IMG/VR virus record: IMGVR_UViG_3300031758_000053
DNA: 20,000 nucleotides
Direction: 5' to 3' (one strand)
Source of the DNA: an uncultured virus (IMG/VR IMGVR_UViG_3300031758_000053)
Lineage: Duplodnaviria; Heunggongvirae; Uroviricota; Caudoviricetes
Shown: positions 3 to 20,000 of the stretch, piece after piece
How the letters are laid out: every line of letters starts with the position of its first letter
Position numbering within the stretch: the stretch's first letter is position 1
Notes under the pieces: model-generated
What the model was told of the DNA's origin: nothing
Seen by the model: only the letters and a program-made list of their open reading frames with translations
Database searches by the model: none
Translations under genes and position numbers: made by a program

Positions 3-3000
3 CTGGCCCGTCAGCCCGCTCCGCAACCTCGACCTGTCATTGAGCCCCCTAAGAAAGAGGGGGTGATGGCTGCGTTTGGCAAAGGGCTAGAAAGCCTGCT
101 GGGCTCTAGCCGCACTGCCGTTGGTGCGTTTACAGGATCTCCTGAAGAAGCTGCCCTGGCTGCTCTGGAGAGGCAGAAGCAGTCTCCCTACGCCGACCAA
201 GTCAGCTTAGAGAAGGTCTCAGAGGCTGCTAAACGAGGCCTGCTGCCCGCCGCTGGTGAGGTCGCTAGGCAGGTGCCTCTGGCTATTGCTGAGCAGGCTC
301 CGAACGTCCTGGCAACACTTGGTTCTGCCAAGGCTGGCTCTTTGCTTGGCGCAAAGCTGGGGACGGCTGTCGCGCCTGGAGTTGGCACAGTAGTTGGAGG
401 TATCGGCGGTGGCATCTTGGGAGCGCTTACCCCGTCTTTGCTCCAGCAGTTTGGCGGGAACATCCAGCGTCAAGCCCAAGAGCAGCAAGCTCAAGGCAAG
501 CCCATCGACATCAGCAGGACATCAGCAGGCTTGGCTGCTGTGCCCCAGGCAGGTCTTGATGTTGCCGCATCCCTAATCCCACTGGGCAGGACGTTTGCTG
601 GCAAGGTTCTAGGCCCGCAAGTTGAAGAACTGTTGAAACGCGGGTCAGTTGAGGGCGCAGAGCGTTTAGCTCGTGAGAGCCTGCCCACTGTGTTGGGCAA
701 GGGTGCTGCGATCAGCATCGCTACTGAAGTCCCGACCGAAGTTATCCAGACCATGCTTGAGCGCTCTCAGGCTGGTCTTGCCCTGACCACCCCGGATGCT
801 TTGGCTGAGTATGGCAATGTGGCATACCAAGCTGGTCTACTTGCGCCTATTGGTGCTGTGGGTCGTGTGGGTGAGCGTGCTGCAGCGCGGAGTGAAGCTC
901 TTCTGCCCGGTCAACGCCGTGGTGAGTCCGATATGGACTTCGCCAACCGGCTGAGTCAAGAGATCGGGAATGATCGTGCTTATGTTGCAATGCAGCAAGC
1001 AGAGCAGGCAGAAGCCGCTAAGCGTCAAGCTGCACTGGAGCAGATGAAACAGGCCATCGGTGATGGCTTGCTGACGCCCGAGGTGGTTAAACAGTGGGGC
1101 TTTGGGAAAGGCTCCATCTTTGATTCCCTGGTCAACAAGAACCTGAGCAATCCTGAGGATGCGTCCTTTGTGGCCGATGTCTTGGCCGCGTACCGGCCTA
1201 AGGCTCACCCCAATACGCAGGTCAAGATTGATGATGCGCTGGCTGGCATTGAAGCCATGTTTGGTGCCAAGCCAACCTCGCAAACTGAAGGAGCAGCAGA
1301 TGTTGGAACGGCTATCACCGAACCAAGTGGAGCGGGCGTTCAAGTGGCTGGCGAGCCCAGTGCAGGAGCCACCACCCCAAGACTTGGAGCCCCTGAACCA
1401 GCAGGAGTGGTTCCTCCTGTCGAGGATGCTAGACAACCTGCTGGAGGAGCAGAAGCAGCACCGCCTGCAGTAGCTCCGCCTCTTGCGCTGCCTGCGCCTG
1501 TTGAGCCTGAAGTAGTTACTCCTGCCGCAGAAGCCGTCACGCCGCCAACAGAGCCGGTTGTTGAAACGCCTGCTGCTGAGAAGCCCGTTGAAGCGCCGGC
1601 TGCTCAGAAACCTGCTGTTGAGTTGCCCAAGTCATTGCAGGATATGTCTCCTGCAAACAGGCAGTTGTATGAGCTTGATCGCAACATAGAAGAAGCGAAG
1701 ACTCCTGCATCTGGTATTGACTGGGAAATCAAGGACACGCTTGCCCCAGAAGAGAGGGGCATGACATTTGAAAGCGCGACCGACCAGCTTAACTCGTACT
1801 TGGCTGGCATCAAAGATCTTGACGGTAAGCTACGCAGTGGCAACAGGACTGGCTCCACCCCAGGTCGTTTGATTGAGATGTGGAAAAACGCTTCGCAAAC
1901 GCAGGCGTTTATAGAGCAGCAGAAACAACAGAAACCCGAGCTTTGGGCGAACTATCAAGCTCGTCAAGCTGATGTTGCCAATCTCAAGGAGGGTGATGCA
2001 GTTATCACGCCCAATGGCGAACAAGCCATCCTTGATAAGAAGTTCCCAAAGAACTGGCGAGTTAAGCTCCCCAATGAAGAGATGCGGCTGTACCCGCCAA
2101 CCAGCTTTAGACGCGCAGAGCCTGCCGCTAAGCTATCGGCAGCACAGATCCCCAAGTACAAGATTGTTCAAACGCAAGTCGAGGGTTTGGACGGCAAGAT
2201 CAAACGCGCCTGGAATGTTGTTGATGCCAAGGACGACTACATACAAGACACGTTTGATACGCGGGCAGAAGCTCAAGACTGGGTCCGTGGCGTAAAGGAA
2301 AGAGCAGCCAAGCCATCACTGGCTGAAGAAGCCAAGCCGCTGCCCATCACACCCGAGATACAGGAAAAGATTGATCAACTTGAGAAGGTTCTCAAGAAGA
2401 TCATGAACAAGTACGGCCTGAAGGATGTTGCCCTCAAGCTGATCGACAACATGAAGGCAGAAGGCGAGTACGCACAGAGCGTGGTTCGTCTGGCCCTGGA
2501 TGCTGTAAACCCGGTGCAGGCCTTGAGGCATGAGTCCATCCATGCTCTGAAGGAACTGGGCTTCTTCTCTCCACAACAATGGGCAGCACTTGAAAAGCAA
2601 GCCAAGAGCAAGTGGATTGATCAGTACCTTAAGACCAAGAACATCAACAAGGAAGACCTAGAGGAGGGCCAGAAGTCCCGCTATGACGCATACATGGAGC
2701 TTTACAAGGGCGACATGGACGCGATCATTGAAGAGGCAATTGCTGATGCCTTTGGGGACTTTGATGTAAACAAGGCTCCTCCGGGCCTGATGCAAGCCAT
2801 CCTGACCCGGCTGCGTAACTTCTTTGATGCGGTCAAGACTGCCTTTGGTGGTGAAGTCACCGCAGAGCAAGTGTTCCGTAAGGTTGAGAAGGGTGCTCTG
2901 AAGGCGGAGGCTAAGGCAGAAGCTGCCCCGGCTAAACAAAGTTTGCGTGAAGTTCCTCTGTCCACTCGTGGGTTGATGGAAGTTCAGCCCATCGTAGCGA

Positions 3001-6000
3001 TGCAGGAGCTTGGGCTCAAAACAGATGCTGTCCGCAAGCCGGGTGGCATTGAGTTGTTTAACGATGTCCGCTCCATCGCTCTTGCACTTAATCAAGACAC
3101 CATCCGAAACAAGGGCAAGATCGCCAAGACCGATACCTCATTGACCTCGGAAAAAGAACTTGCGAGGGCAATGGTTGATGAGATTGGCTACCAGCTAAAA
3201 GCAACTGCAGGGACCGGCACTGGCAAAGGTTGGTACTCGGACAACTATCCCAAGGCAGTTAAGAAGCTGGGCAAGCTGTTCCCAGAGCTTGAGACAGATC
3301 CATATGCCAGAACTGTTTTCTCTGCATTGGTTGCTATTACCTCCAATGGCGAGAAAGTATCTCTCAACGTAAAGAACGCCATTAAGCTCTACGAAGACAT
3401 TCGTATGGGCAAAGACCCGCGTAATATTGGTTCTCGCCGCAAAACTGCACTGGATAATAACATTGCAGTTGTCATGCAGCTAATGAAGCAATATGGTCCC
3501 ACTGGAATGCGCAATGAATTATTGCGTGAGATTACAGTTAAGGACATGAACGCTATCCTGCGTTCACGCGGAGAAAAGCCCGATACCTCTTATCTTGCGG
3601 ATACCAAAGTACCTGCTGCGGCATTGTATTTCGGGCCAAAGCTAGGCGCATTCTTCTCCAATCTTGAAGGCGCAGAGGGCTATCTGACGATGGATATGTG
3701 GTGGACCCGGACGGTTAACCGCATGCGTGGGCAGTTGGAATCAAAGGCCACCGAAGCGTCCATCAAGAAGTTTGCCGCGATGATGGATAAGCCAAATGCC
3801 ACCCGAGATGAGGTGGTGGCGGCAACCATCCCGCTGCGTAACAAATATGAAGAGTTTGGCTGGCACACTGAACTAGAAGAGTTAGTGGGCCGCAAAGAGC
3901 CAGCAGAAGATAAGGACAAGCCAGCCTGGACGGCAAGGGCGAAGCGTCAAGCTGGCCCCGCATATGAAGCTCTCTTGTTTGAACATCGTCTTGAGAAGAT
4001 GGCTAACACCATCTACAAGAACGAGTATGAGTTGCTGGAAGAGGCTCCGTTTACATCCACCGACCGAGAGTTCATGTACCGCACGGCTAGGCGGACTCAG
4101 AGCCTGCTCAAGGCCGAAGGCATTAACCTGTCACTAGCAGACATCCAGGCCGCTCTCTGGTACTACGAGAAGCGTCTGTATCAACATTTGAGTGGAAGGA
4201 AAGCAGATGACATCGGATACGACGAAGCCATCACCCAACTCGCAGGGGAAAGTACTCGACCCGCAGGACCCTCTGTGGTCTTCGCTGGACAACCTGTTTC
4301 TGGGGCTGGAGCCACAGGAGCGGGCGCAGCAGTTGCTGGAGTTAGTGCGCAGCCTGTCCAGCTAAAGCCAAGCCTGCGTGAAAAAGCATCCTGGGATGAC
4401 AAGCGCATTGAGCGTTTAATTGATCAATACGGCTACACCGATGGGCGTACCTACGGTATTGCTGCGTATGTAAACCCGGAAGAGTTTGTCCGCGCAACCA
4501 CTCCGTCCAAAGAGTTTGCCGATGAACTCAAGGCAGAGGCTGGGGCACTTGACCGCGATCAGATAGCCAAAGAAACTCAAACGCCATTCTTGGAATGGGA
4601 CATTGAGAAGGGCGTCATCGTTGGTCATGAAGGCAGGCATCGTATGTCTGCGCTTTCTGCTGAAGGTGTTGAGTCTGCCCCGGTCGTGCTGTACGTCAAG
4701 GATCGGTATGGCTCTAAAAAGCCGGATCAGTATGAGCGCCAGGATTCTGTATCCATCAAGGGGCAGAAATTCCAAGACGGTGTTGGCAGACCTCTGACGG
4801 CCACCAACCTGATTCCACTTGAGTACAGGCAGGCCAAGTCACTGAGAGAAGAATTTGCCGCAGCGGCTGGTGTTAAGTACAGCCTGCGCGTAAACATCCC
4901 GGCAAGCGCACGCGCACGGGTTGTTGCCACTATTGCCTCCCGTCAAGAGAAGGGCTTTGTTGAGCGCCTCATGGAGGCGATCTCTCCAACGTCCTACTCC
5001 GACTTCCGTGCCCAGGCTCTGAACCGCTACAACCAGCTTGGTGTTTACGACAAGATCCGCGCCAAGAAGATGGGTGGTGCTGCGCTGCTTGCTGATTCCA
5101 GCGCTGAGTCTGCTGCCCTGCTGTCTGACCTGGGTGCTGGTCTAACCGCTTCCGCGCTGGGTGTGCATGACCGGATGGGTGGCATTCCTGTGTTCAGGAA
5201 CGGTATCACCATCATCAGCAACCAAAACGGCACGATCAAAGGCCCGACCGCGATCTTTGCCCCGTTGGCTGCTGATCCGGCTCATTATCAGGACTATCAG
5301 TTCTGGGCTGGCGTGAAGCGTGGTTCGCGCTACATGCAAAACCCACAAGGCAAGTACGAAGAGAAACTGTTTACACCATCAGACGTCAAAGAGGCGGAAG
5401 TAATTCGCAAGGCATACCTCAAGGCGGGGATTGACTTTGAGGCCATGCAAAAGGAGTGGATCAAGTACAACGACGGTCTCGTCCAGTACATGGTCGATAC
5501 CGGCGTGCTCTCACAGGAGCGTGCTGACCTGTACCGTAAACACGCAGACTATCTGCCCTTCTATCGGCAGATGGACGGCAGAGAGACCATTGGCCCGAAG
5601 GTTTTCCAAGCCATCTCTGGTGTCAAGCCGCCTAAAGCCGCTAAGGGTGGAGAGGCCCTGCTTGATGACTTTTTAGAAAACATTGTCCGCAACACTCAGT
5701 CTGCGATCCAGGCTGGCGTCAAGAATGTCGCAGCCCAAAGAGCCGCCAAGGTGGCTATGGACATCGGCATGGCATCGCGGCTGGGCTTCAAGTCCTCCGC
5801 AGCCGGAACCTTTGATGTTCTGGAGAACGGTCAGGTTGTCACGTACCAATCAAAGGATGAGCTTTTCATCAACGCCATCAAGAGCCTTGGTATTCCTGAC
5901 CTGCCGTTTATAGGACTGTTGTCTGGCCCCGCGAACTTGCTTCGCAATCTGGTAACCAAAGACCCAGGCTTCATGCTTGCCAACCTGATGCGTGACTCAA

Positions 6001-7475
6001 TGTCCGCATGGGTTACCTCCGGCGTGAAGATGACCCCGATGGTAAACACCTTCACCAACTTTGGTGCTGCTATCGCAGGCAAAGACCCGGCCTTCCAAGC
6101 TCTGATGAACGCAGGCATTTTGGGTGGCTATGAGTTCTCGCAGAACGTGGAGCAGAGCGGGCGTGAGTTCGGCAAGGCTCTGAGGAAGCAAGCCAAGATC
6201 AAGTCCACCGGGCTCAAGGGCGCAGCAGAGATGGGCGCTAAGCCGTTTACATCTCTGTGGGATGCGCTGGAGAAAGGTTCCACTGCATCTGACGCAGCCA
6301 CTCGGATGGAGGTCTACAAGCGCACGCTGGCCGAGACCAACAACGAAGCAGAGGCTCTGTTTAGAGCGCTTGAGGTGATGAACTTCAACCGTAAAGGATC
6401 TTCTGCTGTCGTAAGAATTCTTACCGCTGCGGTGCCGTTCTTAAACGCACGCATGCAGGGCCTGGATGTTCTGTACCGCGCAGCTTCGGGGCAGATGAAC
6501 GCTCGTGATGCAGCGCAGATCCAGAAGCAGTTCTTTGTGCGCGGCGCAATGATTGCATCCTTGTCTGCCGCTTACTGGCTGCTGACGCATGACGATGAGG
6601 AATACAAGAAGCAGGAGCAGGAGACAAGAGACAACTACTGGCTTCTTCCTTCGCTGGGCGTCAAGATCCCGATCCCCTTTGAAATCGGTGTGTTGTTCAA
6701 GGTGATCCCTGAGCGCATCCTTGGTTACACATTTGGTAGCGACACGGGTGAAGACTTCCTGAAGTCGATGGCTCGGCAGTTGACCAGCACCCTTGCGTTT
6801 AATCCAATCCCGCAGGCGGTTATGCCTGTTGTGGAGACGATGACCAACTTCTCCTTCTTCACCATGCGCCCGATTGTTGGGCAGGGACTGGAAGGGTTGC
6901 AACCTGCGTACCAAGTTGGGCCGGGTACGTCTCGTCTGGCAGAAGGTTTAGGAGAGATGACCAAGGGGATGGCAAAGGAGTTGCAAGTCTCCCCAATGAA
7001 GATCGATCAGTTGATCAGCGGGTACACCGGCACGATGGGCATGTATCTGATGAACCTGATGGATGCCGTTTACGACATGAACACGGACTCGCCCAAGCCT
7101 GCCAGAAGGTTTGAGCAGATGCCTCTGATCCGTCGCTTTGCAGTTGATCCTGAGGCCCGTGGAAACGTCACCGCGTACTACGAACTCAAGAACTCGGTGG
7201 ACTCCATCGTCCGCACCTCCAACATGCTTGAGAGGACGATGAACTATGAGGAGTTGCCCGGTTACCTGATGGACAACATGAAGATGTTGGCCTCCAAGGA
7301 TTACATCCTTGATCTTGAGAAGACCATGAAGGAGTTCCGGGAGATGAAGATCCTGATCCGCTCAGCTTCTATGGACGCAGATGCCAAGAAGGACGCCATC
7401 CTGGCAATCGATCAGATGGAGAACCAATTGACATCCAACATCCAGTACATGAAGAAGCTGGCTAAGGGAGACTGA
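3..7475 (+). CDS. Giant polyvalent / internal virion (ejection-type) protein with LPD38-like C-terminus; 5'-partial
   Basis: The frame is open from the window edge (LARQPAPQPRPVIEPPKKEGVMAAFGKG...), so the true start is probably upstream; at least 2470 aa. Gly/Ala-rich N-terminus, Pro/Ala linker, HESIH...EEAIAD zincin motif (2529-2747), GWY..ITSNG..GPKLGAFFSNL..TMDMW..QAALW domain (~3000-4240), GHEGRHR ParB-like motif (4623-4643), and C-terminal RDNYWLLP..IPIPFEIG typical of LPD38. Confidence 0.9.
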   Translation: MARQPAPQPRPVIEPPKKEGVMAAFGKGLESLLGSSRTAVGAFTGSPEEAALAALERQKQSPYADQVSLEKVSEAAKRGLLPAAGEVARQVPLAIAEQAPNVLATLGSAKAGSLLGAKLGTAVAPGVGTVVGGIGGGILGALTPSLLQQFGGNIQRQAQEQQAQGKPIDISRTSAGLAAVPQAGLDVAASLIPLGRTFAGKVLGPQVEELLKRGSVEGAERLARESLPTVLGKGAAISIATEVPTEVIQTMLERSQAGLALTTPDALAEYGNVAYQAGLLAPIGAVGRVGERAAARSEALLPGQRRGESDMDFANRLSQEIGNDRAYVAMQQAEQAEAAKRQAALEQMKQAIGDGLLTPEVVKQWGFGKGSIFDSLVNKNLSNPEDASFVADVLAAYRPKAHPNTQVKIDDALAGIEAMFGAKPTSQTEGAADVGTAITEPSGAGVQVAGEPSAGATTPRLGAPEPAGVVPPVEDARQPAGGAEAAPPAVAPPLALPAPVEPEVVTPAAEAVTPPTEPVVETPAAEKPVEAPAAQKPAVELPKSLQDMSPANRQLYELDRNIEEAKTPASGIDWEIKDTLAPEERGMTFESATDQLNSYLAGIKDLDGKLRSGNRTGSTPGRLIEMWKNASQTQAFIEQQKQQKPELWANYQARQADVANLKEGDAVITPNGEQAILDKKFPKNWRVKLPNEEMRLYPPTSFRRAEPAAKLSAAQIPKYKIVQTQVEGLDGKIKRAWNVVDAKDDYIQDTFDTRAEAQDWVRGVKERAAKPSLAEEAKPLPITPEIQEKIDQLEKVLKKIMNKYGLKDVALKLIDNMKAEGEYAQSVVRLALDAVNPVQALRHESIHALKELGFFSPQQWAALEKQAKSKWIDQYLKTKNINKEDLEEGQKSRYDAYMELYKGDMDAIIEEAIADAFGDFDVNKAPPGLMQAILTRLRNFFDAVKTAFGGEVTAEQVFRKVEKGALKAEAKAEAAPAKQSLREVPLSTRGLMEVQPIVAMQELGLKTDAVRKPGGIELFNDVRSIALALNQDTIRNKGKIAKTDTSLTSEKELARAMVDEIGYQLKATAGTGTGKGWYSDNYPKAVKKLGKLFPELETDPYARTVFSALVAITSNGEKVSLNVKNAIKLYEDIRMGKDPRNIGSRRKTALDNNIAVVMQLMKQYGPTGMRNELLREITVKDMNAILRSRGEKPDTSYLADTKVPAAALYFGPKLGAFFSNLEGAEGYLTMDMWWTRTVNRMRGQLESKATEASIKKFAAMMDKPNATRDEVVAATIPLRNKYEEFGWHTELEELVGRKEPAEDKDKPAWTARAKRQAGPAYEALLFEHRLEKMANTIYKNEYELLEEAPFTSTDREFMYRTARRTQSLLKAEGINLSLADIQAALWYYEKRLYQHLSGRKADDIGYDEAITQLAGESTRPAGPSVVFAGQPVSGAGATGAGAAVAGVSAQPVQLKPSLREKASWDDKRIERLIDQYGYTDGRTYGIAAYVNPEEFVRATTPSKEFADELKAEAGALDRDQIAKETQTPFLEWDIEKGVIVGHEGRHRMSALSAEGVESAPVVLYVKDRYGSKKPDQYERQDSVSIKGQKFQDGVGRPLTATNLIPLEYRQAKSLREEFAAAAGVKYSLRVNIPASARARVVATIASRQEKGFVERLMEAISPTSYSDFRAQALNRYNQLGVYDKIRAKKMGGAALLADSSAESAALLSDLGAGLTASALGVHDRMGGIPVFRNGITIISNQNGTIKGPTAIFAPLAADPAHYQDYQFWAGVKRGSRYMQNPQGKYEEKLFTPSDVKEAEVIRKAYLKAGIDFEAMQKEWIKYNDGLVQYMVDTGVLSQERADLYRKHADYLPFYRQMDGRETIGPKVFQAISGVKPPKAAKGGEALLDDFLENIVRNTQSAIQAGVKNVAAQRAAKVAMDIGMASRLGFKSSAAGTFDVLENGQVVTYQSKDELFINAIKSLGIPDLPFIGLLSGPANLLRNLVTKDPGFMLANLMRDSMSAWVTSGVKMTPMVNTFTNFGAAIAGKDPAFQALMNAGILGGYEFSQNVEQSGREFGKALRKQAKIKSTGLKGAAEMGAKPFTSLWDALEKGSTASDAATRMEVYKRTLAETNNEAEALFRALEVMNFNRKGSSAVVRILTAAVPFLNARMQGLDVLYRAASGQMNARDAAQIQKQFFVRGAMIASLSAAYWLLTHDDEEYKKQEQETRDNYWLLPSLGVKIPIPFEIGVLFKVIPERILGYTFGSDTGEDFLKSMARQLTSTLAFNPIPQAVMPVVETMTNFSFFTMRPIVGQGLEGLQPAYQVGPGTSRLAEGLGEMTKGMAKELQVSPMKIDQLISGYTGTMGMYLMNLMDAVYDMNTDSPKPARRFEQMPLIRRFAVDPEARGNVTAYYELKNSVDSIVRTSNMLERTMNYEELPGYLMDNMKMLASKDYILDLEKTMKEFREMKILIRSASMDADAKKDAILAIDQMENQLTSNIQYMKKLAKGD
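1300..1473 (+). CDS. Nested overprinted small protein (57 aa) in the +1 frame of the giant gene
   Basis: AAGGAG (1288-1293) followed by ATG 1300. Product MLERLSPNQVERAFKWLASPVQEPPPQDLEPLNQQEWFLLSRMLDNLLEEQKQHRLQ looks like an amphipathic helical protein, while the host frame here is a low-complexity G/A/P/V linker. Confidence 0.65.
   Translation: MLERLSPNQVERAFKWLASPVQEPPPQDLEPLNQQEWFLLSRMLDNLLEEQKQHRLQ
4207..4365 (+). CDS. Nested overprinted small protein (52 aa) in the +1 frame of the giant gene
   Basis: GGAAGGAAAGCAG then ATG 4207; MTSDTTKPSPNSQGKVLDPQDPLWSSLDNLFLGLEPQERAQQLLELVRSLSS, TAA 4363-4365. Rich in CTG/GAG/CAG codons; the host frame reads GAGATGAGAAVAGV. Confidence 0.55.
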   Translation: MTSDTTKPSPNSQGKVLDPQDPLWSSLDNLFLGLEPQERAQQLLELVRSLSS

Positions 7476-8806: not shown

Positions 8807-9090
8807 ATCGCTCCTAGTTGCCACACACTATTTGCCACCGGCTTGCGTACAGGCACAGCCTTGACTGCCTTGGGCTTTACTCGCAGCACAGGTGGCTTGC
8901 TCTTGGTTAGATATAGCCCACGCTTGGCACCGGGCACCATGTTTACAAGGCACCCCTTTTTGACCAAGTTGTGCACCGCATAGCGGGCCTTGTCGGGCCA
9001 CTGATGAAAGTGCTGACGGATCTCTTTCATGGTGCGTAGGCGGTAACAGAAGTCCAGCACAGCGGCGGAGTGTTCTTTGACGAACTTCAT
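8803..9090 (-). CDS. Hypothetical basic protein, possible winged-helix
   Basis: AGGAGAAGCA-ATG; TMKEIRQHF..ARYAVHNLVKKGCLV pattern; ends ANSVWQLG. Confidence 0.7.
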   Translation of the reverse strand: MKFVKEHSAAVLDFCYRLRTMKEIRQHFHQWPDKARYAVHNLVKKGCLVNMVPGAKRGLYLTKSKPPVLRVKPKAVKAVPVRKPVANSVWQLGAI

Positions 9091-9269
9091 TGCTTCTCCT
9101 GCGTTGGAAAAAAGTTCTTGGGTGAAGACCCAAAACACAACAGCACGGTAAGCGCAAACCACCACCCAGACCACCCGCGCTCTGCCACCAGCCAAGCAGT
9201 GCCAGTAAGGACAAAGATGTCAAACACAAGCATGCCGAAGTACATGAGCATGCGGTAGCTGTTTTTCAT
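9087..9269 (-). CDS. Small membrane protein (60 aa)
   Basis: Two hydrophobic segments around GWSGWWF; ATGA coupling at both ends. Confidence 0.75.
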   Translation of the reverse strand: MKNSYRMLMYFGMLVFDIFVLTGTAWLVAERGWSGWWFALTVLLCFGSSPKNFFPTQEKQ

Positions 9270-9517
9270 TCCTCCCCCTTCAGATACCGCTCCACCGCCC
9301 GAGCGAAGTGGTGGTGGAACCCGCCGTTCTGGTGCCACAGGTCAGCGATGACCTCGTCGGTGAGGGTGCGTTCAATGGGCGGGTGTGTGTAAAGAGGTGT
9401 TAGCCCTTCGGACCGATGGCTGGCTGTGTTTGCCCACGCACGTATGCTCATGTGCGAGCGAAGGTCGTTGAGTTCCTCCAACTGATGGTTCCATGCCCAT
9501 ACAACAGGTTCACTCAT
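9266..9517 (-). CDS. Phage hypothetical protein (EPV..PLYTHP..LTDE..FARAVE type)
   Basis: Common phage accessory motif string; coupled to neighbours. Confidence 0.75.
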   Translation of the reverse strand: MSEPVVWAWNHQLEELNDLRSHMSIRAWANTASHRSEGLTPLYTHPPIERTLTDEVIADLWHQNGGFHHHFARAVERYLKGEE

Positions 9518-12326: not shown

Positions 12327-12621
12327 GTTGGTTCTCCTTGATTGCTAGTTTCTGAAGGTCTTCGTTTACAAGATCAGCGAATGACTTCCCAGACGGGAAC
12401 CTCATACGCGCTGCCTTGTTCTCTGCTACGGATCGCATAGCATCTTTGAGTGCCGTGTTGTAGCCATGTGAGTATCTATCACCTGCCGCAATACGCGCAT
12501 CAATACTTTCCCTAATGACCTGAGCCATCGGCACATCATTCTTGGATGCAAAGCGTTTAAGCCTTGCATACTGGTCAAATGTCAGGTAAGCCATGAAAGG
12601 CTTGAGGTTAGAAATCGTCAT
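12226..12621 (-). CDS. Ribbon-helix-helix DNA-binding protein
   Basis: KPFMAYLTFDQYARLKRFASKNDVPMAQVIRESID matches the RHH pattern; GAGG RBS. Confidence 0.75.
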   Translation of the reverse strand: MTISNLKPFMAYLTFDQYARLKRFASKNDVPMAQVIRESIDARIAAGDRYSHGYNTALKDAMRSVAENKAARMRFPSGKSFADLVNEDLQKLAIKENQHEAKREDHARQHEAGEPAQGAGGEGQGDPDLGL

Positions 12622-13560: not shown

Positions 13561-13730
13561 AGCTTCTCCACATACTTCTTGATTGCAGTCTCAACTGCGA
13601 GGGACTTGGAAACCTTCAACTCTTCCAAGCCTGCGGGCAGGGTCTTCCTGATCGCCTCTTGGATTTCAGAGATCAGGGCTTCAGTCTCCAGGGGCAGACT
13701 GATGATGTACCGCTTCTTTGCTTCACTCAC
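13557..13730 (-). CDS. Small RHH-like protein (57 aa)
   Basis: Not in the ORF track. AAGGAG RBS, GTG start; MSEAKKRYIISLPLETEALISEIQ..VSKSLAVETAIKKYVEKL; fills the operon gap. Confidence 0.7.
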   Translation of the reverse strand: MSEAKKRYIISLPLETEALISEIQEAIRKTLPAGLEELKVSKSLAVETAIKKYVEKL

Positions 13731-14397
13731 TTGCGTTCTCCTTGAACTTCGCCTTCATTTCGCTGAAGACATCGCGCACCCGAGTAAACAGATCCGGGTG
13801 ATTGCTCTTGAGGTCATCGATCTTGGTCTGGTTTGCTTTCCAGTAAGACTTCAAACCGGCTTCCGTCTTGCAGATCAAGACAAACTCCACCATCCCATCT
13901 GCGAACAACTCCGCAGACGCACGGTCCAACTCAGAATGAACCGCAGCAGCCTTGACTACCGGGTCTTCCTTCTTGGTCTCTTCCTTCTTGGGCTCCTCTT
14001 CATCCTCCGCCATCGGAAGGTCTTCACCTGCGTAGATGTTTAACCCCAGGCCATGCAGCGCCAGAGCCTTAGCCATGCAGCGCATGATTGCGGTGTTGAC
14101 TTGAAACGAATCCGGGTTTGGGATCGGCTTGTTGCGGTGATCCATCACGGGCAGGAAACAGGTCATCTCCTTGCCAAAGATCGTGACCCGCACCCACACC
14201 ATGCCTGTACCGCCGTTCACCTCCATGTAAGGAATGGTTGTGCCGTCTGCGCGTTCAAACGTCTCAACGTGGAACGTGGCTAAGGGGTCTGCCTTCAGTG
14301 CCTCTGCCCATGCGTGTGACCATGAGAGGTATGAGAGGTTGTTCTTCTTCTCAACGTGCTTTGATACGTCGAGCGCCAACAATTTACTGATCGTCAT
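13723..14397 (-). CDS. DUF1071 / Sak3-like single-strand annealing protein
   Basis: VSKHVEKKNNLSYLSWSHAW..LPVMDHRNK..NTAIMRCMAKALALHGLGLNIYAGEDLP. Confidence 0.88.
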   Translation of the reverse strand: MTISKLLALDVSKHVEKKNNLSYLSWSHAWAEALKADPLATFHVETFERADGTTIPYMEVNGGTGMVWVRVTIFGKEMTCFLPVMDHRNKPIPNPDSFQVNTAIMRCMAKALALHGLGLNIYAGEDLPMAEDEEEPKKEETKKEDPVVKAAAVHSELDRASAELFADGMVEFVLICKTEAGLKSYWKANQTKIDDLKSNHPDLFTRVRDVFSEMKAKFKENASE

Positions 14398-15256
14398 CTG
14401 ATTTCCTTTCGTCTTGGAACTGCTTGCACCATTGAGCCACGCCGCAGAAGTTGCCCGTACAACGGCGTGGTTCTCCCAGTCTTGTTTCAACGTATCCCTT
14501 CTCCTTCTCTGCCAATGCTTTGGCTTCTTCTTCATCCTTGAGGACGCGGATGGCTGTCTTCCTGCCCTCTCTCTTGACGGCATAGACCGTCTCTGACATC
14601 CAACGATCCTCGTTGGAACAAGGGGCCAACTCATCTCCTAGATCGTGATCAACCTTGGAGATGCGATGCGCCTCAAGCCTTTCCCGGATGTAGGCTTCTG
14701 TCTTCTCCAGAGGCCACACCTCAAGATCAACCATCTCAATCGGGGCCTTTGGATAGCCCTCCTTGGTCTCATGGCGGCTGAAGTCCCGAACCAGAGCGCA
14801 GATGCGAAGACCCACAACCTTTTTGCCCTTGACCTTCTCAACCAAGAACCTGTAGACGTTTAACTGCTGGACCCACTCCAGCTTCTCTTGCATCACTGCC
14901 CACGCAGATGTGAACTTGTAGTCTGTGATGATGACGCCGAAGGGCGTCTCCTCTTGCAGGTCAATCGCTCCGCTGATCGTTACTCCATCCACCTCATAGA
15001 ACAGGCGCTCTTCAGTAATGAAGCCTGGGGTCTGCCCTCTTTCCATCACTACGTGCAGTGCCGAGCCGAGCATCGACCACAGCATGTCAGAGACATCCTG
15101 CTCAATAGCATCGTCGTATTGTTCGCGCAAGCGCCTGATGCGCGGCGGGCTCATCAACTCCGTGACGCTGTACTGCGACTTGCCCTTGCTGTAGTATTCG
15201 CGGGAAGCGAGTGTCACTAGGGGAAGTGGCACATCATGTTTGTTTGTGATCTTCAA
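14384..15256 (-). CDS. PD-(D/E)XK (Cas4/RecB-like) exonuclease
   Basis: GSALH..EERL..ISGAIDL..DYKFT..QLNVY, C-terminal RRC..FC....C; TTG start after GGAGAG; adjacent to the annealase. Confidence 0.85.
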   Translation of the reverse strand: MKITNKHDVPLPLVTLASREYYSKGKSQYSVTELMSPPRIRRLREQYDDAIEQDVSDMLWSMLGSALHVVMERGQTPGFITEERLFYEVDGVTISGAIDLQEETPFGVIITDYKFTSAWAVMQEKLEWVQQLNVYRFLVEKVKGKKVVGLRICALVRDFSRHETKEGYPKAPIEMVDLEVWPLEKTEAYIRERLEAHRISKVDHDLGDELAPCSNEDRWMSETVYAVKREGRKTAIRVLKDEEEAKALAEKEKGYVETRLGEPRRCTGNFCGVAQWCKQFQDERKSDDDQ

Positions 15257-15268
15257 GGAAGCTCTCCG

Positions 15269-15712
15269 ATGTGTGATGATCCACATGATAGTGCTAGTGC
15301 GAACACTCTGCAAGTGGTATCGCTAAAAATATTTGGAGAGCCTGCGTCGAAGGCCAACTCAAGGCGGGTGGTCCGTATTGGTGGCAGGTCACGCTTGATC
15401 AAAAGCGACAAGGCTTTGAGCTACTCTGATGTGTTCAAACAGCAGGCACAAGGCATGTGCATAAACCCTGTGCATGGTGATGTGCGGGTGACGATGCACA
15501 TCTGGTATGCCTCACGCAGGCCAGACTTGGACGAGTCCTTGATCTTGGATCTGCTCCAAGGGGTCACGTATGTAAACGACCGTCAGGTCAAGGAGAAGCA
15601 TATCTACTGGCATCTTGATCCAGCAGAGCCACGCACGGAGATCGTGGTGGAGGAACTGCCGATGCCAAAAAAGAAGCCCCGGAGCCGAAGCTCGACGGGG
15701 CTAAAGGGCTGA
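15269..15712 (+). CDS. rusA: RusA-like Holliday junction resolvase
   Basis: GEPASKANSRR..RRPDLD..ILDLLQG..YVNDRQV..PRTEIVV; start codon uncertain (15269 to about 15314). Confidence 0.82.
   Translation: MCDDPHDSASANTLQVVSLKIFGEPASKANSRRVVRIGGRSRLIKSDKALSYSDVFKQQAQGMCINPVHGDVRVTMHIWYASRRPDLDESLILDLLQGVTYVNDRQVKEKHIYWHLDPAEPRTEIVVEELPMPKKKPRSRSSTGLKG
15285..15313 (-). promoter_or_regulatory. Putative sigma70 promoter of the leftward operon
   Basis: Minus strand TTGCAG-17 nt-TATCAT, about 30 nt upstream of the exonuclease start; overlaps the 5' end of rusA. Confidence 0.5.
15667..15702 (-). terminator. Intrinsic terminator (minus strand)
   Basis: AGCCCC-gtc-GAGC-TTCG-GCTC-c-GGGGCT followed by TCTTTTTT. 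Confidence 0.75.
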
Positions 15713-15755
15713 CGCCCCAAGGGAGAAGCAACTGCTCGGAAGGGAGTTACCGAGC
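15667..15755 (-). ncRNA. Putative ~90 nt small RNA with two anti-Shine-Dalgarno tracts
   Basis: Extended -10 upstream; 5' hairpin GCUCGG/CCGAGC with loop UAACUCCCUU; linker GUUGCUUCUCCCUU; 3' terminator with a cUUCGg loop and U tract. Confidence 0.6.
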
Positions 15756-15761
15756 GAGGAC

Positions 15762-15770
15762 ATCTTAGCA
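15762..15770 (-). promoter_or_regulatory. Extended -10 promoter (leftward)
   Basis: TGcTAAGAT on the minus strand; predicted +1 near 15755 coincides with the first base of the hairpin. Confidence 0.55.
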
Positions 15771-15816: not shown

Positions 15817-15845
15817 TTGACAAGCCCTTTGTTGTTGAGTAGAGT
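15817..15845 (+). promoter_or_regulatory. Sigma70 promoter (rightward, replication operon)
   Basis: TTGACA (15817-15822), 17 nt spacer, TAGAGT (15840-15845). Confidence 0.75.
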
Positions 15846-15849
15846 TGAT

Positions 15850-15948
15850 CCTGTTGGCGTGGAAACCGACGAGCGAGCCCTTGAGAAACCATCCGCCCTC
15901 TGCCCCAGAGGGTTTCCACCGGATGGCTCCTCAAGGGCTCTTTTGTTT
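15850..15948 (+). ncRNA. c4/CI-like structured leader RNA / attenuator
   Basis: Hairpin 15853-15870 has loop GTGGAAA. Long stem 15875-15885/15930-15940 encloses inner stems and a TTTCCAC bulge complementary to that loop. A U-rich tail follows. Confidence 0.65.
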
Positions 15949-16753: not shown

Positions 16754-16986
16754 GAGACTACAAACAAGAATACAAAACGCAGAAGGCCAGGGACGAACAC
16801 CCTGACCGCATGGAGAGGCAGAGAGCAAGACGCAAGCTCGATGCCAAGGGTGTAAACAGGGCAGGAAAAGACGTAAGTCATGTCAAAGCCTTGTCAAAGG
16901 GCGGCTCCAACAGTGATGGCATCAGGCTAGAGCCGCCGTCCAAGAACCGCTCTTTTCCCAGGACTAAGACGGGCGCGATGAAATGA
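16750..16986 (+). CDS. Small HNH-like endonuclease
   Basis: RDYKQEY..RQRARR..GKDVSHVKALSKGGSN..KNRS; GTGA and ATGA coupling. Confidence 0.75.
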   Translation: MRDYKQEYKTQKARDEHPDRMERQRARRKLDAKGVNRAGKDVSHVKALSKGGSNSDGIRLEPPSKNRSFPRTKTGAMK

Positions 16987-18668
16987 TCGAAGCTCTCGTT
17001 GAGCAAACACGTTTCAACGATCAGGCCCGAGTGGTCTGCCCCTTCTGCGGGCCGGACCGAAGGAAAAGCAACTCAAAGGACATGACCCTGTCCAGAAAAG
17101 ATGATGGGGCAGTTGTCTATTTTTGCCATCACTGTGATGCACAGGGATCGGTACAACCAAAGAGGAGAATCCAATTGGCCGCAGTGCCTCAACCCAAAAT
17201 TGTGAGCAACGCTCTCAGTCAACATCATTACGAGTGGCTTGCCAAGCGCGGCATCAGCAAGTACACCGCAGACAAAGCCAAGCTGTTCAGCGCAGACAAA
17301 TGGTTCGCCCGTCTAAACAAGACCGCAGACTGCATCGGCTTTCCGTACTACCGAGACGGTGCCTTGGTCGCAGCCAAGTACCGCAGCTTCCCAGAGAAGG
17401 ACTTCACACAGGACTCAGGTGGAGCCCACGACTTCTTTGGGATTGATCAAGTGGACAAGGGTAAACCCTTGGTCATTGTCGAGGGAGAGATAGATGCCTT
17501 GACCCTCATGGAGGCAGGCATTGAGAACGCAGTGAGTGTGCCCTCAGGGGCACCCATCAAGGTGGCAGATGGCAAGGTTCTGCCCAGTGAAGACAAGAAG
17601 TTTGCTTATGTCTGGAACGCCAGAGAGATCATTGACGCAGTGCCTTATGTGGTGCTGGCAACAGATCAGGATGGACCAGGGCAGGCCCTAGCAGAAGAAC
17701 TCGCAAGGCGGATTGGCAAAGAGAAATGCCGGGTCGCCAAGTTTGATGCCAAAGACTTAAACGACATCTTCCTTGACCCAACACGGCAGGGAGCCGAATC
17801 GGTCAAGGAGGTAATCGAGAAAGCGCAGCCGTATCCGGTCTCAGGACTGTCTGATGCCGGGACGTATGAGGACCGTATAAACGATCTCTTCAACAAGGGC
17901 ACAGGCAAGGGATTCTCAACCGGCTACTCGTCTGTAGACAGCATTTACACAGTGGCACCGGGGCAGTTGACTGTGGTCACTGGATACCCATCCAGCGGCA
18001 AGAGCAACTTCATTGATCAGGTCATGGTCAATCTAGCGCGGGCCAATGACTGGAAGTTCGCAGTCTGTAGCTTTGAGAACCAGCCCGAGATTCACATCAC
18101 CCGCCTGATGGAGATCTACACGCAGAAGAGGTTTTTTGAAGGCAAGGAGCGGATGACCCAACACGAAAGGGATGCCGCATTCGCGTGGGTCAAGGAGCAC
18201 TTCCTCTTCATTGACTCCCAGGGCGAGGAACCCAACACCCTAGACAGCATCCTTGACCGTGCTCGGGTAGCAGTTAAACGCATGGGCGTGCGGGGATTGA
18301 TCATTGACCCGTACAACTACATAGATTTAAACAGAGACAACGCCACCGAGACTGAGGCGATCAGCAACATGCTGACTCGGGTGCAGAAGTTCTGCAAGGC
18401 GCATGACGTTCACACCTTCTTCATCGCCCACCCCAGCAAGATCAATCGTGCGGGCGTGGAACAGCCCCGCCCGGACGGCATGAGCATTAGCGGGTCAATG
18501 GCGTGGTGGGCAAAGACTGACAACGGGATCACCGTTCACAGGCAGGAGCAGTGGGTGGAGATCGCGGTCTGGAAGTGCAGATACCGATGGGTTGGCACCC
18601 AAGGGGAGACCTCCCTGCTGTACAACAAGACAGCAGGCACCTACTCAGAGAATCTAGACAAGTTCTGA
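16983..18668 (+). CDS. Bifunctional primase-helicase (T7 gp4 / Twinkle-like)
   Basis: Zn finger CPFC..CHHC; TOPRIM VEGEID and DQD; Walker A GYPSSGKS; Walker B IIDPYN; IAHP and ISGS SF4 motifs. Confidence 0.95.
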   Translation: MIEALVEQTRFNDQARVVCPFCGPDRRKSNSKDMTLSRKDDGAVVYFCHHCDAQGSVQPKRRIQLAAVPQPKIVSNALSQHHYEWLAKRGISKYTADKAKLFSADKWFARLNKTADCIGFPYYRDGALVAAKYRSFPEKDFTQDSGGAHDFFGIDQVDKGKPLVIVEGEIDALTLMEAGIENAVSVPSGAPIKVADGKVLPSEDKKFAYVWNAREIIDAVPYVVLATDQDGPGQALAEELARRIGKEKCRVAKFDAKDLNDIFLDPTRQGAESVKEVIEKAQPYPVSGLSDAGTYEDRINDLFNKGTGKGFSTGYSSVDSIYTVAPGQLTVVTGYPSSGKSNFIDQVMVNLARANDWKFAVCSFENQPEIHITRLMEIYTQKRFFEGKERMTQHERDAAFAWVKEHFLFIDSQGEEPNTLDSILDRARVAVKRMGVRGLIIDPYNYIDLNRDNATETEAISNMLTRVQKFCKAHDVHTFFIAHPSKINRAGVEQPRPDGMSISGSMAWWAKTDNGITVHRQEQWVEIAVWKCRYRWVGTQGETSLLYNKTAGTYSENLDKF

Positions 18669-19091: not shown

Positions 19092-19351
19092 CTCGGGTAT
19101 GCCATGTCCAGAATCTGCTCGGCCACGAAGTAACCCTCGGAGTCGGCTGCGCCGTACAGGCTGTGCATTTTGAGCGCGGCAATTACCCATCGCGCTGCCT
19201 CTTCCCGGTTGGATGCTGCGTTGATTGCCTTCTCTACGTCTTTGTTGAGAATGCGGGCCACATCATCGCGGCCAGCCTCCATGTATAAACACCACTCATC
19301 TGCGGTGAGGTTGATGCTGGCTTGCACCTTGTGCGTAATGGTCACGTTCAT
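19088..19351 (-). CDS. Hypothetical protein (YGAADSE motif)
   Basis: AGGAGG RBS, 87 aa. Confidence 0.8.
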   Translation of the reverse strand: MNVTITHKVQASINLTADEWCLYMEAGRDDVARILNKDVEKAINAASNREEAARWVIAALKMHSLYGAADSEGYFVAEQILDMAYPR

Positions 19352-19363
19352 GTTGCCTCCTGT

Positions 19364-19681
19364 TTACACAAGCCCATCGGGCACAATCACATCGTCGCCC
19401 AGCCTGGATGCCACGTAGCAGCGCATGGCTGCAATCAGGGGCGTGGGACCGCCCCAGCAGAATGCGACCGGGCTGTCGGCAGCCCACTCAACATCTGCCA
19501 TGTCGTCCGACTCGTCTGGGTAGATTGAAATGCTCTCCCGCTCAATGATCGGCCCTCCAAACGCCCAATTACGGGATGGCTTGTAGGTGTAATACCCGTC
19601 AGGGCTGAGATCAAAAACCTTACCCTCACACTTCGCCACCGCCCAATCGAGCGCGGCTCCGGTCAGTTCACTTGTCTTCAT
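19364..19681 (-). CDS. ninX: NinX family (DUF2591) protein
   Basis: SELTGAALDWAVAKCEG..PSRNWAFGGPIIERE..GPTPLIAAMRCYVASRLG. Confidence 0.85.
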   Translation of the reverse strand: MKTSELTGAALDWAVAKCEGKVFDLSPDGYYTYKPSRNWAFGGPIIERESISIYPDESDDMADVEWAADSPVAFCWGGPTPLIAAMRCYVASRLGDDVIVPDGLV

Positions 19682-19695
19682 GTCAATGCTCCTGT

Positions 19696-19866
19696 TTACA
19701 CATCAACGACTTCAATGTCGCACTCGTAATCGTCCGGATCACGGTCTGGATTGGTGCCCCATTCCGTATGCGCGAGGTTTTCAATCTCATCGTCATCTGC
19801 CCCTTCAGGCACATCAAATTCGATGTAATAAGTGACGGTCTCAGTCACGATTGCTTTGCGCTTCAT
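19696..19866 (-). CDS. Small acidic hypothetical protein (56 aa)
   Basis: Not in the ORF track. AGGAG RBS; MKRKAIVTETVTYYIEFDVPEGADDDEIENLAHTEWGTNPDRDPDDYECDIEVVDV. Confidence 0.8.
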   Translation of the reverse strand: MKRKAIVTETVTYYIEFDVPEGADDDEIENLAHTEWGTNPDRDPDDYECDIEVVDV

Positions 19867-19887
19867 GTTGCTTCTCCTGTTTACACA

Positions 19888-20000
19888 TCAAAATGGAATA
19901 GGGCCACCCAGGATGACCCGCCTAGCTTCTGCCTCATCCGGCAGTCTTTGTGCTGCCATGTCGCACAGGTCTTTGCCTTCTTTCAGGCCACACCCGAACT
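19888..20000 (-). CDS. Partial gene, ribosomal L7/L12 C-terminal-domain-like motif
   Basis: FGCGLKEGKDLCD...GGPIPF then TGA; resembles bL12 GLGLKEAKDLVE. Only 36 codons are visible. Confidence 0.5.
   Translation of the reverse strand, partial: FGCGLKEGKDLCDMAAQRLPDEAEARRVILGGPIPF

Follow-up and report, generated by a model that had tools for sequence, protein, structure and literature searches.

A predicted phage small RNA convergent with rusA, with an unpaired tract complementary to start regions of the phage's own early genes

What could a short minus-strand transcription unit do when it is packed against the 3' end of a phage recombination gene? The question is raised by a 20,000-nucleotide (nt) stretch of the uncultured Caudoviricetes virus IMGVR_UViG_3300031758_000053, hereafter the window. 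An earlier note on this DNA had proposed that a small RNA (sRNA) gene, convergent with the Holliday junction resolvase gene rusA, carries two tracts complementary to Shine-Dalgarno (SD) sequences and silences genes in trans. Our analysis makes a real sRNA gene at this place highly probable. The reading we favor, with a probability of roughly 0.5, is that the sRNA acts in trans and keeps ribosomes from initiating on some of the phage's own early genes. The direct observations behind it are the anatomy of the unit, its synteny, structural covariation, an enrichment of complementarity, and the covariation of seed and target in relatives.

The elements that the earlier note had named are all present on the minus strand: an extended -10, a 5' hairpin with its loop, an unpaired linker, and a terminator with a cUUCGg loop (Table 1). 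The first anti-SD tract (tract 1) is located in the loop of hairpin 1 and the second (tract 2) in the linker. The 106-nt fold has a free energy of -44.3 kcal/mol (z = -3.48; 1 of 200 shuffles as good), and on average tract 1 is unpaired with probability 0.92 and tract 2 with 0.96. The terminator was recovered by a consensus scan and overlaps the final 46 nt of the rusA coding end in antisense, an overlap already pointed out in the note. Transcription of the unit is inferred from this anatomy. A coding reading was also considered and rejected: the 55-amino-acid (aa) minus-strand open reading frame (ORF) at 15604-15771 matches nothing in Pfam, and the related locus L003 lacks its ATG. The refuting alternative, in which the tract functions as a plus-strand ribosome-binding site (RBS), fails, as no ATG, GTG or TTG is found at RBS distance after GGAGAAGCAAC or AAGGGAG.

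A unit of this kind recurs beside rusA in related phages. A RusA search of viral contigs returned 55 loci, 45 of which have a strong terminator on the minus strand no more than about 40 nt from the rusA end. In those loci a short RNA and a sigma-70-like promoter precede the terminator, convergent with rusA. Two of the remaining ten loci are cut by the contig end, and one (L046) has a unit with an interrupted U-run. The gene order is uniform in all 14 loci for which ORFs were listed: exonuclease (minus strand), rusA (plus), the sRNA unit (minus), and plus-strand ORFs. An ORF of about 560 aa, the length of the window primase/helicase, is found on the plus strand in 9 of these 14 within the stretch covered. 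The comparison comprised 37 unique sRNA sequences, window included. Every one of them has a sigma-70-like promoter, whose predicted start is the first base of the 5' hairpin in most loci, and every one has an anti-SD pentamer 5' of the terminator, compared with 31% of composition shuffles.

The extended -10 is also retained. TGnTAnnnT stands in register before the 5' hairpin in L003 and L004 (TGCTACACT), L127, L128, L005, L013, L014, L010 and L023, despite differences in the upstream DNA of those loci, and TGCTAnnnT is kept in register across three distinct upstream contexts. Among the RusA loci, resemblance to the window at the DNA level is confined to L003 and L004; a metagenome scan added three identical copies and three variants of the window type. 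The 5' 36 nt of the sRNA, which comprise hairpin 1 and both tracts, are identical at 36/36 positions in L003 and L004. The rusA DNA of these two loci is 90.5-90.8% identical to that of the window, and their DNA upstream of the -10 is unrelated. When viral contigs were scanned with a 17-nt word, 12 stretches came back, and the only relatives among them were two known already. The other forms of the unit include a low-GC subgroup, with loop UAAGCCUCC and its variants and an invariant AGACCAGUAGGUCGGA hairpin that an exact scan finds in 35 viral contigs, as well as a GAUCUCCCUCCUGU type, twin-loop types and a CUCUCUCUCC type.

Compensatory base changes further support an RNA. In the six window-type sequences, five of them distinct, 110 of 110 cells of 22 pairs are paired. 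All stem substitutions are compensatory and the remaining substitutions fall in loops: hairpin 2 changes from G-C to A-U in L125 and L127, with a loop that varies between GUCA, GCAA and GAAA, and the terminator changes from C-G to U-A in L128. When the window-type sequences are aligned with MAFFT, 2 of 22 pairs have changed on both sides (27 of 500 shuffles as high). A covariance model, R1, built from the six sequences finds subgroup B (L020, L013, L021, L025) at the syntenic place with E values of 1.3e-5 to 9e-4 in 218 kb. These matches are aligned end to end, and the window itself scores 112.7 bits. In nine sequences, whose alignment was fitted to R1 and hence leans towards the structure, 97.4% of 195 cells pair (89.2 +/- 1.2 in shuffles), 9 of 22 pairs have changed on both sides (4.1 +/- 1.3), and the covariation score is 0.348 (0.176); none of 500 shuffles reached any of these values. 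Slid controls are paired at 52.7% at most. Helix 1 is 100% paired in the nine sequences with one pair changed on both sides, and 3 of the 5 pairs of hairpin 2 have changed on both sides in A5. Covariation in related phages, which the earlier note had named as a check, is observed, and together with the 45 syntenic units and the extended -10 in register it gives good support to the claim of a small-RNA gene. With RNAalifold, hairpins 1 and 2 were lost when different subgroups were combined in one MAFFT alignment, since the stems then fall out of register.

What does the exposed RNA match? The claim that both tracts match the RBSs of the phage stands for tract 2, which shows extended complementarity, and falls for tract 1. 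Target counts for the window's phage cover the 20-kb window only; the nearest record, G001, stops at window position 9450, short of the sRNA locus. Tract 2 has the 11-nt exact complement directly before ATG 19866 and the 10-nt match at ATG 9090 that had been reported earlier. Since both words sit on the sense strand of minus-strand genes, this is true complementarity between sRNA and mRNA. When one mismatch is allowed, GGAGAAGCAAC has seven matches in the window, one of which is the sRNA gene, compared with 0.69 +/- 0.83 in shuffles (0 of 200 reach seven). The matches at gene starts, 19866, 9090 and 12326, all belong to minus-strand early genes. Among the minus-strand gene starts listed, RBSs of the GGAGAA type recur at 9090, 12326, 13560, 13730, 18975 and 19866, and tract 2 is therefore the reverse complement of a preferred start cassette of the phage.

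Any anti-SD motif will by its nature match an SD core, and what is informative is confined to the 6-7 nt outside that core. Tract 2 reaches 7 nt past the SD core, into the phage-specific spacer. At start-like sites in the window, the window's own seed gives two matches of at least 10 nt and the seeds of other phages give none. The 11-bp duplex that extends to position -1 of gene 19866 is predicted at about -20 kcal/mol for the seed alone; by typical values, a duplex of this length would exceed the pairing of an SD with 16S rRNA. The L003 contig retains the 19866 site at the corresponding position. The starts of the window exonuclease and primase pair poorly with the window sRNA, the primase having no SD of its own and being coupled to an upstream ORF, and the starts of the rightward operon in the window offer nothing beyond a weak match. 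As a separate observation, the same junction, GUGUAAACAGGAG, stands before three consecutive minus-strand genes (starts 19351, 19681 and 19866; 19351-19890). It includes the upstream gene's stop codon together with the SD of the gene that follows, and looks like a repeated intercistronic cassette.

The loop of the low-GC relatives has 9-12 nt of complementarity to the primase/helicase SD, the spacer and sometimes the first bases of the start codon, and 7-11 nt to the exonuclease start. Seed variants go with variants of the primase spacer: UAAGCCUCC with GGAGGCUUA, UAAGCCCCC with GGGGCUUA, UGAGCCUCC with GGAGGCUCA, and UUAGCCUCC with GGAGGCUAA. The loop matches its own primase start over 9.60 nt on average and the primase starts of other loci over 6.92 nt (15 unique pairs), a difference reached by 0 of 10000 permutations in a test that ignores relatedness, which inflates the result, and that covers about 3-4 independent seed switches only. 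Window-type seeds are invariant across the window-type sequences. In the complete genome G004, six start-like sites reach 8 nt of complementarity or more, and all of them fall at 23.6-32.6 kb, close by the sRNA gene; three belong to small ORFs and the others to the exonuclease, the primase and an AAA_5 ATPase. Complementarity beyond the SD core is seen for tract 2 and the subgroup A loops, and not for tract 1 or in G007, G008 and G010. Extended self-complementarity is clear in two lineages and is not shown in others. Counting exact runs of the whole 5' part against whole genomes was dropped, as chance 9-mers dominate. A single case of another kind was seen in G006, the genome of L017: near 29798 on the minus strand, the start region GCCACAGGAGAGCAACC-AUG has complements in two separate parts of that phage's sRNA, the linker (10 nt) and the loop of hairpin 1 (6 nt, GUUGCU). 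The word GUUGCU is also part of window tract 2.

These observations can be joined into a mechanism. The sRNA of about 89 nt would be one form of a group of syntenic sRNA genes that are convergent with rusA and sit between leftward recombination and rightward replication operons in a lineage of uncultured freshwater phages whose genomes measure about 60-67 kb. Host RNA polymerase would start at the extended -10 and stop at the intrinsic terminator, and the RNA would display an unpaired CU-rich tract in a loop and another in a linker. In genes 19866 and 9090, and more weakly in 12326 and 13560, tract 2 would pair with the SD and the spacer as far as the start codon. This pairing would occlude 30S binding and lower the translation of the bound early genes. 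The equivalent loop in the low-GC relatives would act likewise on the start of the primase/helicase gene and, with a less exact match, on that of the exonuclease. A role in timing or dosage would be a further step beyond the presumed repression: the sRNA might rise with genome copy number and shut the early genes off, as a timer or copy-number brake. The trans-acting silencer for temporal shut-off that the earlier note envisaged would fit both the anatomy and the covariation of seed and target in relatives. More tentative is the wider proposal of a lineage-wide sRNA against start regions, in which the seed is the reverse complement of the phage's own preferred RBS and spacer, co-evolves with them, and serves as a dosage-sensitive brake or timer. 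The co-evolving partner would then be the primase/helicase start in the low-GC members and small early genes in the window's phage.

Table 1. Positions of the predicted sRNA, its complementary sites and neighboring features in the window
Feature	Position	Strand	Remark
Predicted sRNA, about 89 nt	15667..15755	-	Start inferred 7 nt past the -10; end is the U-run
Extended -10, TGcTAAGAT	15762..15770	-	TG 15770-15769, TAAGAT 15767-15762; read in the sequence
Hairpin 1, GCUCGG/CCGAGC, 6 bp	15734..15755	-	Loop UAACUCCCUU is anti-SD tract 1 (15740-15749)
Unpaired linker AGUUGCUUCUCCCUU, anti-SD tract 2	15719..15733	-	Core GUUGCUUCUCC at 15722-15732
Hairpin 2, GGGGC-GUCA-GCCCU	15705..15718	-	Small hairpin between tract 2 and the terminator
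Intrinsic terminator	15702-15675; U-run 15674-15667	-	Two-tier hairpin, inner cUUCGg loop
GGAGAAGCAAC, RBS and spacer of the 56-aa ORF 19866-19696	19867..19877	-	11/11 complement of tract 2
GGAGAAGCAA, overlapping ATG 9090 of a 95-aa ORF (9090-8803)	9090..9099	-	10-nt complement of tract 2
GGAGAACCAAC, before ATG 12326 (60-aa ORF)	12327..12337	-	One mismatch to the tract 2 complement
GGAGAAGC, before GTG 13560 (SSB-like 89-aa ORF)	13562..13569	-	8-nt complement of tract 2
PD-(D/E)XK exonuclease	14384..15256	-	Opens the leftward recombination operon; TTG 15256 assigned as start by homology
rusA, Holliday junction resolvase	15236..15712	+	Pfam RusA E 2.4e-7; PHROG 140; 55 related loci
Divergent promoter TTGACA-17-TAGAGT	15817-15845	+	10/12 promoter positions in the consensus scan
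Long hairpin-terminator RNA	about 15852-15948	+	Ahead of the replication operon; fold z = -5.48, 0/200 shuffles equal

Several findings weigh against the reading of a trans-acting sRNA aimed at the phage's own start regions. The window promoter has no convincing -35 and scores 7, compared with 10-11 in relatives. Of four sequencing runs compared with the window, the one that is clearly RNA has a single contig there, of 168 nt over 15220-15384; the contigs, which cannot show absence, leave the sRNA uncovered. At least four of the five bases of the anti-SD motif are unpaired in the minimum free energy fold in 22 of the 37 sequences only. L003 and L004 were recovered through RusA as well; L125, L127 and L128 were found by a pattern that fixed the tracts, so that their tract identity is no evidence. 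R1 does not detect the low-GC, twin-loop or CUCU-type subgroups, and kinship across subgroups is consequently read from position and architecture only. Hairpin 1 of the low-GC subgroup is thermodynamically weak: 8 to 403 of 1000 flank shuffles are as good, and most sequences give a hairpin that does not outdo those of their shuffled flanks. Tract 1 is a generic anti-SD motif that matches the SD core only; its complement AAGGGAGTTA, with up to two mismatches, occurs 13 times where 11.8 are expected (87 of 200 shuffles as high). The two best window targets, 19866 and 9090, are small ORFs that belong to no family in Pfam or PHROG and lack homologues in five related genomes, and the L004 contig has one-mismatch sites only, the 19866 site not being kept. 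The relatedness of the pairs in the primase permutation test belongs here as well. For the exonuclease start, own pairs match over 8.36 nt and foreign pairs over 7.82 nt, which is not significant (813/10000). Specificity of the seed for its own genome is absent in three of six genomes (G007, G008 and G010) and weak or modest in G006. Ranking start-like sites by duplex energy was tried and is uninformative in high-GC genomes, where spurious sites dominate.

How does this RNA compare with known systems? No Rfam family (Rfam 15) reaches its threshold on the window or 20 relatives. For RF02837 (anti-hemB), the window scores 20.4 bits (E 0.81, or 0.024 over 601 nt), below the gathering score of 49.5, and L005 gives a sub-threshold 27.2 bits. 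For the Betaproteobacteria toxic sRNA RF02278 (gathering score 50 bits), the window has no match at E <=1 and L005 scores 27.0 bits. The scores for RF00519 (mmgR/suhB; gathering score 41 bits) are 19.0 bits for the window and 25.9 bits for L006, and the window has no match to RF01695 (C4 antisense RNA) at E <=1. By design, the RNA most closely resembles the Burkholderia double-hairpin (toxic) sRNAs, anti-hemB and the Neisseria NmsRs, as far as the accessible part of PMC5688073 describes such RNAs. In that text, CU-rich unpaired tracts of such host sRNAs are predicted to cover RBSs, and the predicted interactions cluster near start codons. The two CUCCCUU tracts of the window sRNA are likewise unpaired, the feature that the same text gives for the double-hairpin RNA, and the alignment of the window RNA to the anti-hemB model runs over the full length and places CUCCCU in the loop of the first hairpin. 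Unlike these three kinds of RNA, the window sRNA is phage-encoded, has a fixed place by rusA and scores far below the gathering thresholds, and its seed extends into the spacer of the phage's own genes.

In position, the closest known system is lambda OOP, which lies beside the replication genes (O and ori). Like OOP as portrayed in the available text of PMC12197685, the window unit has its own promoter and a strong terminator, is convergent with a neighboring gene and overlaps its 3' end. The same text describes OOP as a 77-nt RNA antisense to cII that triggers RNase III decay. In contrast to the proposed window sRNA, OOP acts through this antisense overlap and RNase III, with neither an anti-SD seed nor start regions targeted in trans, and no relation between the two was found by sequence or Rfam. 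With respect to the proposed action on a phage RBS, c4 of P1/P7 and sar of P22 are the closest analogs; their loops pair with the RBS region of phage mRNA and block translation, according to the accessible part of PMC12197685. They differ in that c4 and sar act on an antirepressor gene for immunity, sar being encoded antisense to its target, whereas the predicted targets in the window lineage are replication, recombination and small early genes encoded elsewhere. A working similar to the proposed role is known from other repressors. CopA of plasmid R1 is a constitutive repressor whose dose follows template number and which blocks translation of the replication protein, and T4 RegA and RegB silence the start regions of early genes after the early phase. 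CopA, in contrast to the window sRNA, is fully complementary and cis-encoded, and RegA and RegB are proteins.

Could the sRNA be real and be aimed mainly at host mRNAs? It would then mimic the CU-rich anti-SD sRNAs of Betaproteobacteria for host take-over or metabolic reprogramming, and its phage matches would be secondary. The weak, full-length, sub-threshold similarity of the window, L005 and L006 to host sRNAs in Rfam points this way, as do the CU-rich tracts predicted over RBSs in host sRNAs (PMC5688073, in its accessible part), the three of six phage genomes that lack an own-genome-specific match, and the generic nature of tract 1. The low-GC seed variants, however, follow the phage's own primase spacer, tract 2 continues 7 nt past the SD core into spacer that is specific to the phage, and nothing supports a host target directly. 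We consider this explanation unlikely. Action in cis on rusA is a little less probable still. Here convergent transcription or a duplex would control rusA in the way of OOP on cII (antisense, with RNase III decay; PMC12197685, available text), or would only shield it from leftward transcription, and the anti-SD tracts would be incidental. The convergent position by rusA is the most conserved feature of the group, the overlap is 46 nt, and no plus-strand terminator was found between the rusA stop and 15925 in the consensus scan, so that rusA transcripts would carry the complement of the full sRNA. That overlap shrinks to roughly 5-25 nt in the low-GC relatives (from ORF and sRNA coordinates), which makes it look like tight packing, and it involves the terminator and not the conserved 5' part. 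Action in cis also leaves unexplained the anti-SD motifs in 37 of 37 sequences and the covariation with the primase start. As a speculation, rusA readthrough transcripts could add a sponge-like layer to the trans-acting sRNA.

The possibility that no functional RNA exists, and that a terminator, a promoter-like word and a decayed plus-strand gene-start cassette have come together by chance or descent, is very improbable in our judgment. It draws on the fact that GGAGAAGCAAC-ATG is a recurrent gene-start cassette of this phage, of which the plus-strand copy at 15722 is one base short before a TG, not an ATG, and on the RNA-run contigs, which give no evidence of expression and, as said, cannot show absence. 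Against it stand the order of promoter, hairpin and terminator, kept in 45 of 55 loci across very different sequences, the compensatory base-pair changes, and a 36-nt 5' part that is invariant while its flanks diverge. A trans-acting sRNA directed at the phage's own start regions remains the reading that we prefer.

At the left end of the window, an ORF of 2490 aa (3-7475, plus strand) precedes a block of small early genes on the minus strand; the last members of this block are an SSB-like gene, the gene of a Sak single-strand annealing protein (13723-14634) and the PD-(D/E)XK exonuclease. The exonuclease start was set by comparison with relatives at TTG 15256 and not at the first in-frame start, 15313. 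The start of rusA is uncertain (ATG 15236, ATG 15269 or GTG 15314), and its stop codon is at 15710-15712. The two genes stand head to head, with a gap of at most 57 nt and starts that possibly overlap. In low-GC relatives this gap is 43-53 nt (24 nt in L057 by ORF call), and rusA lacks an SD. Rightward of rusA follow a plus-strand promoter, three small ORFs and the primase/helicase (16983-18668, plus strand), and a further minus-strand gene block runs from 18745 to past 20000. The divergent promoter is followed by a plus-strand hairpin of about 95 nt with a U-run, which is either a second short RNA or a leader-terminator that needs antitermination or read-through.

Other elements were seen near the unit in relatives. 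GAACGTT, with the palindrome core AACGTT, lies a few bases upstream of the sRNA -35 in L027, L034, L040, L042, L054 and L057 and could be a regulator site. Many intergenic terminator hairpins across the low-GC contigs contain or adjoin a recurrent palindrome, GTTTAAAC. RF02932 (Betaproteobacteria-1 RNA) matches with 68-93 bits in 7 of 20 related loci (L035, L040, L042, L046, L050, L051 and L057) and is without a match in the window. The matching stretches are on the plus strand, about 300-450 nt past the end of rusA, where they separate the sRNA gene from the primase operon. These matches suggest that this orphan motif belongs to this phage lineage. R1 gives weak plus-strand matches directly after rusA in L008 (3403-3486, E 0.24) and L009 (3447-3536, E 0.053), two loci that have no minus-strand unit; the matches end at a plus-strand terminator, and the element may be present there in the opposite orientation, as an RNA of the rusA 3' end.

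The phage is distant from named ones. Searches of named phages with blastn gave no match, and the primase protein is less than 33% identical to every named-phage record. A RusA scan of bacterial and archaeal genomes gave one small contig, probably mis-binned, and thus no host. Related complete records are 60-66 kb long, and two carry direct terminal repeats. A 138-kb metagenome contig (loci L129 and L130) carries the window sequence twice, 67,627 bases apart, which suggests that the genome of the window's phage is about 67.6 kb and was assembled there as a dimer.

Judged from the available text of the review PMC12197685 and the literature searched, phage sRNAs in print mostly target host genes or act as cis-antisense RNAs on immunity genes. 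The literature searched for phage-encoded anti-SD sRNAs, a search whose coverage excludes most subscription journals, held no description of this RNA. A further suggestion is that phages of Betaproteobacteria borrowed the CU-rich anti-SD design of their hosts' sRNAs. If the trans-acting reading is true, these phages would regulate their own replication post-transcriptionally, by a trans-acting sRNA encoded at one conserved position, and the locus would offer a compact and testable pair of seed and target.

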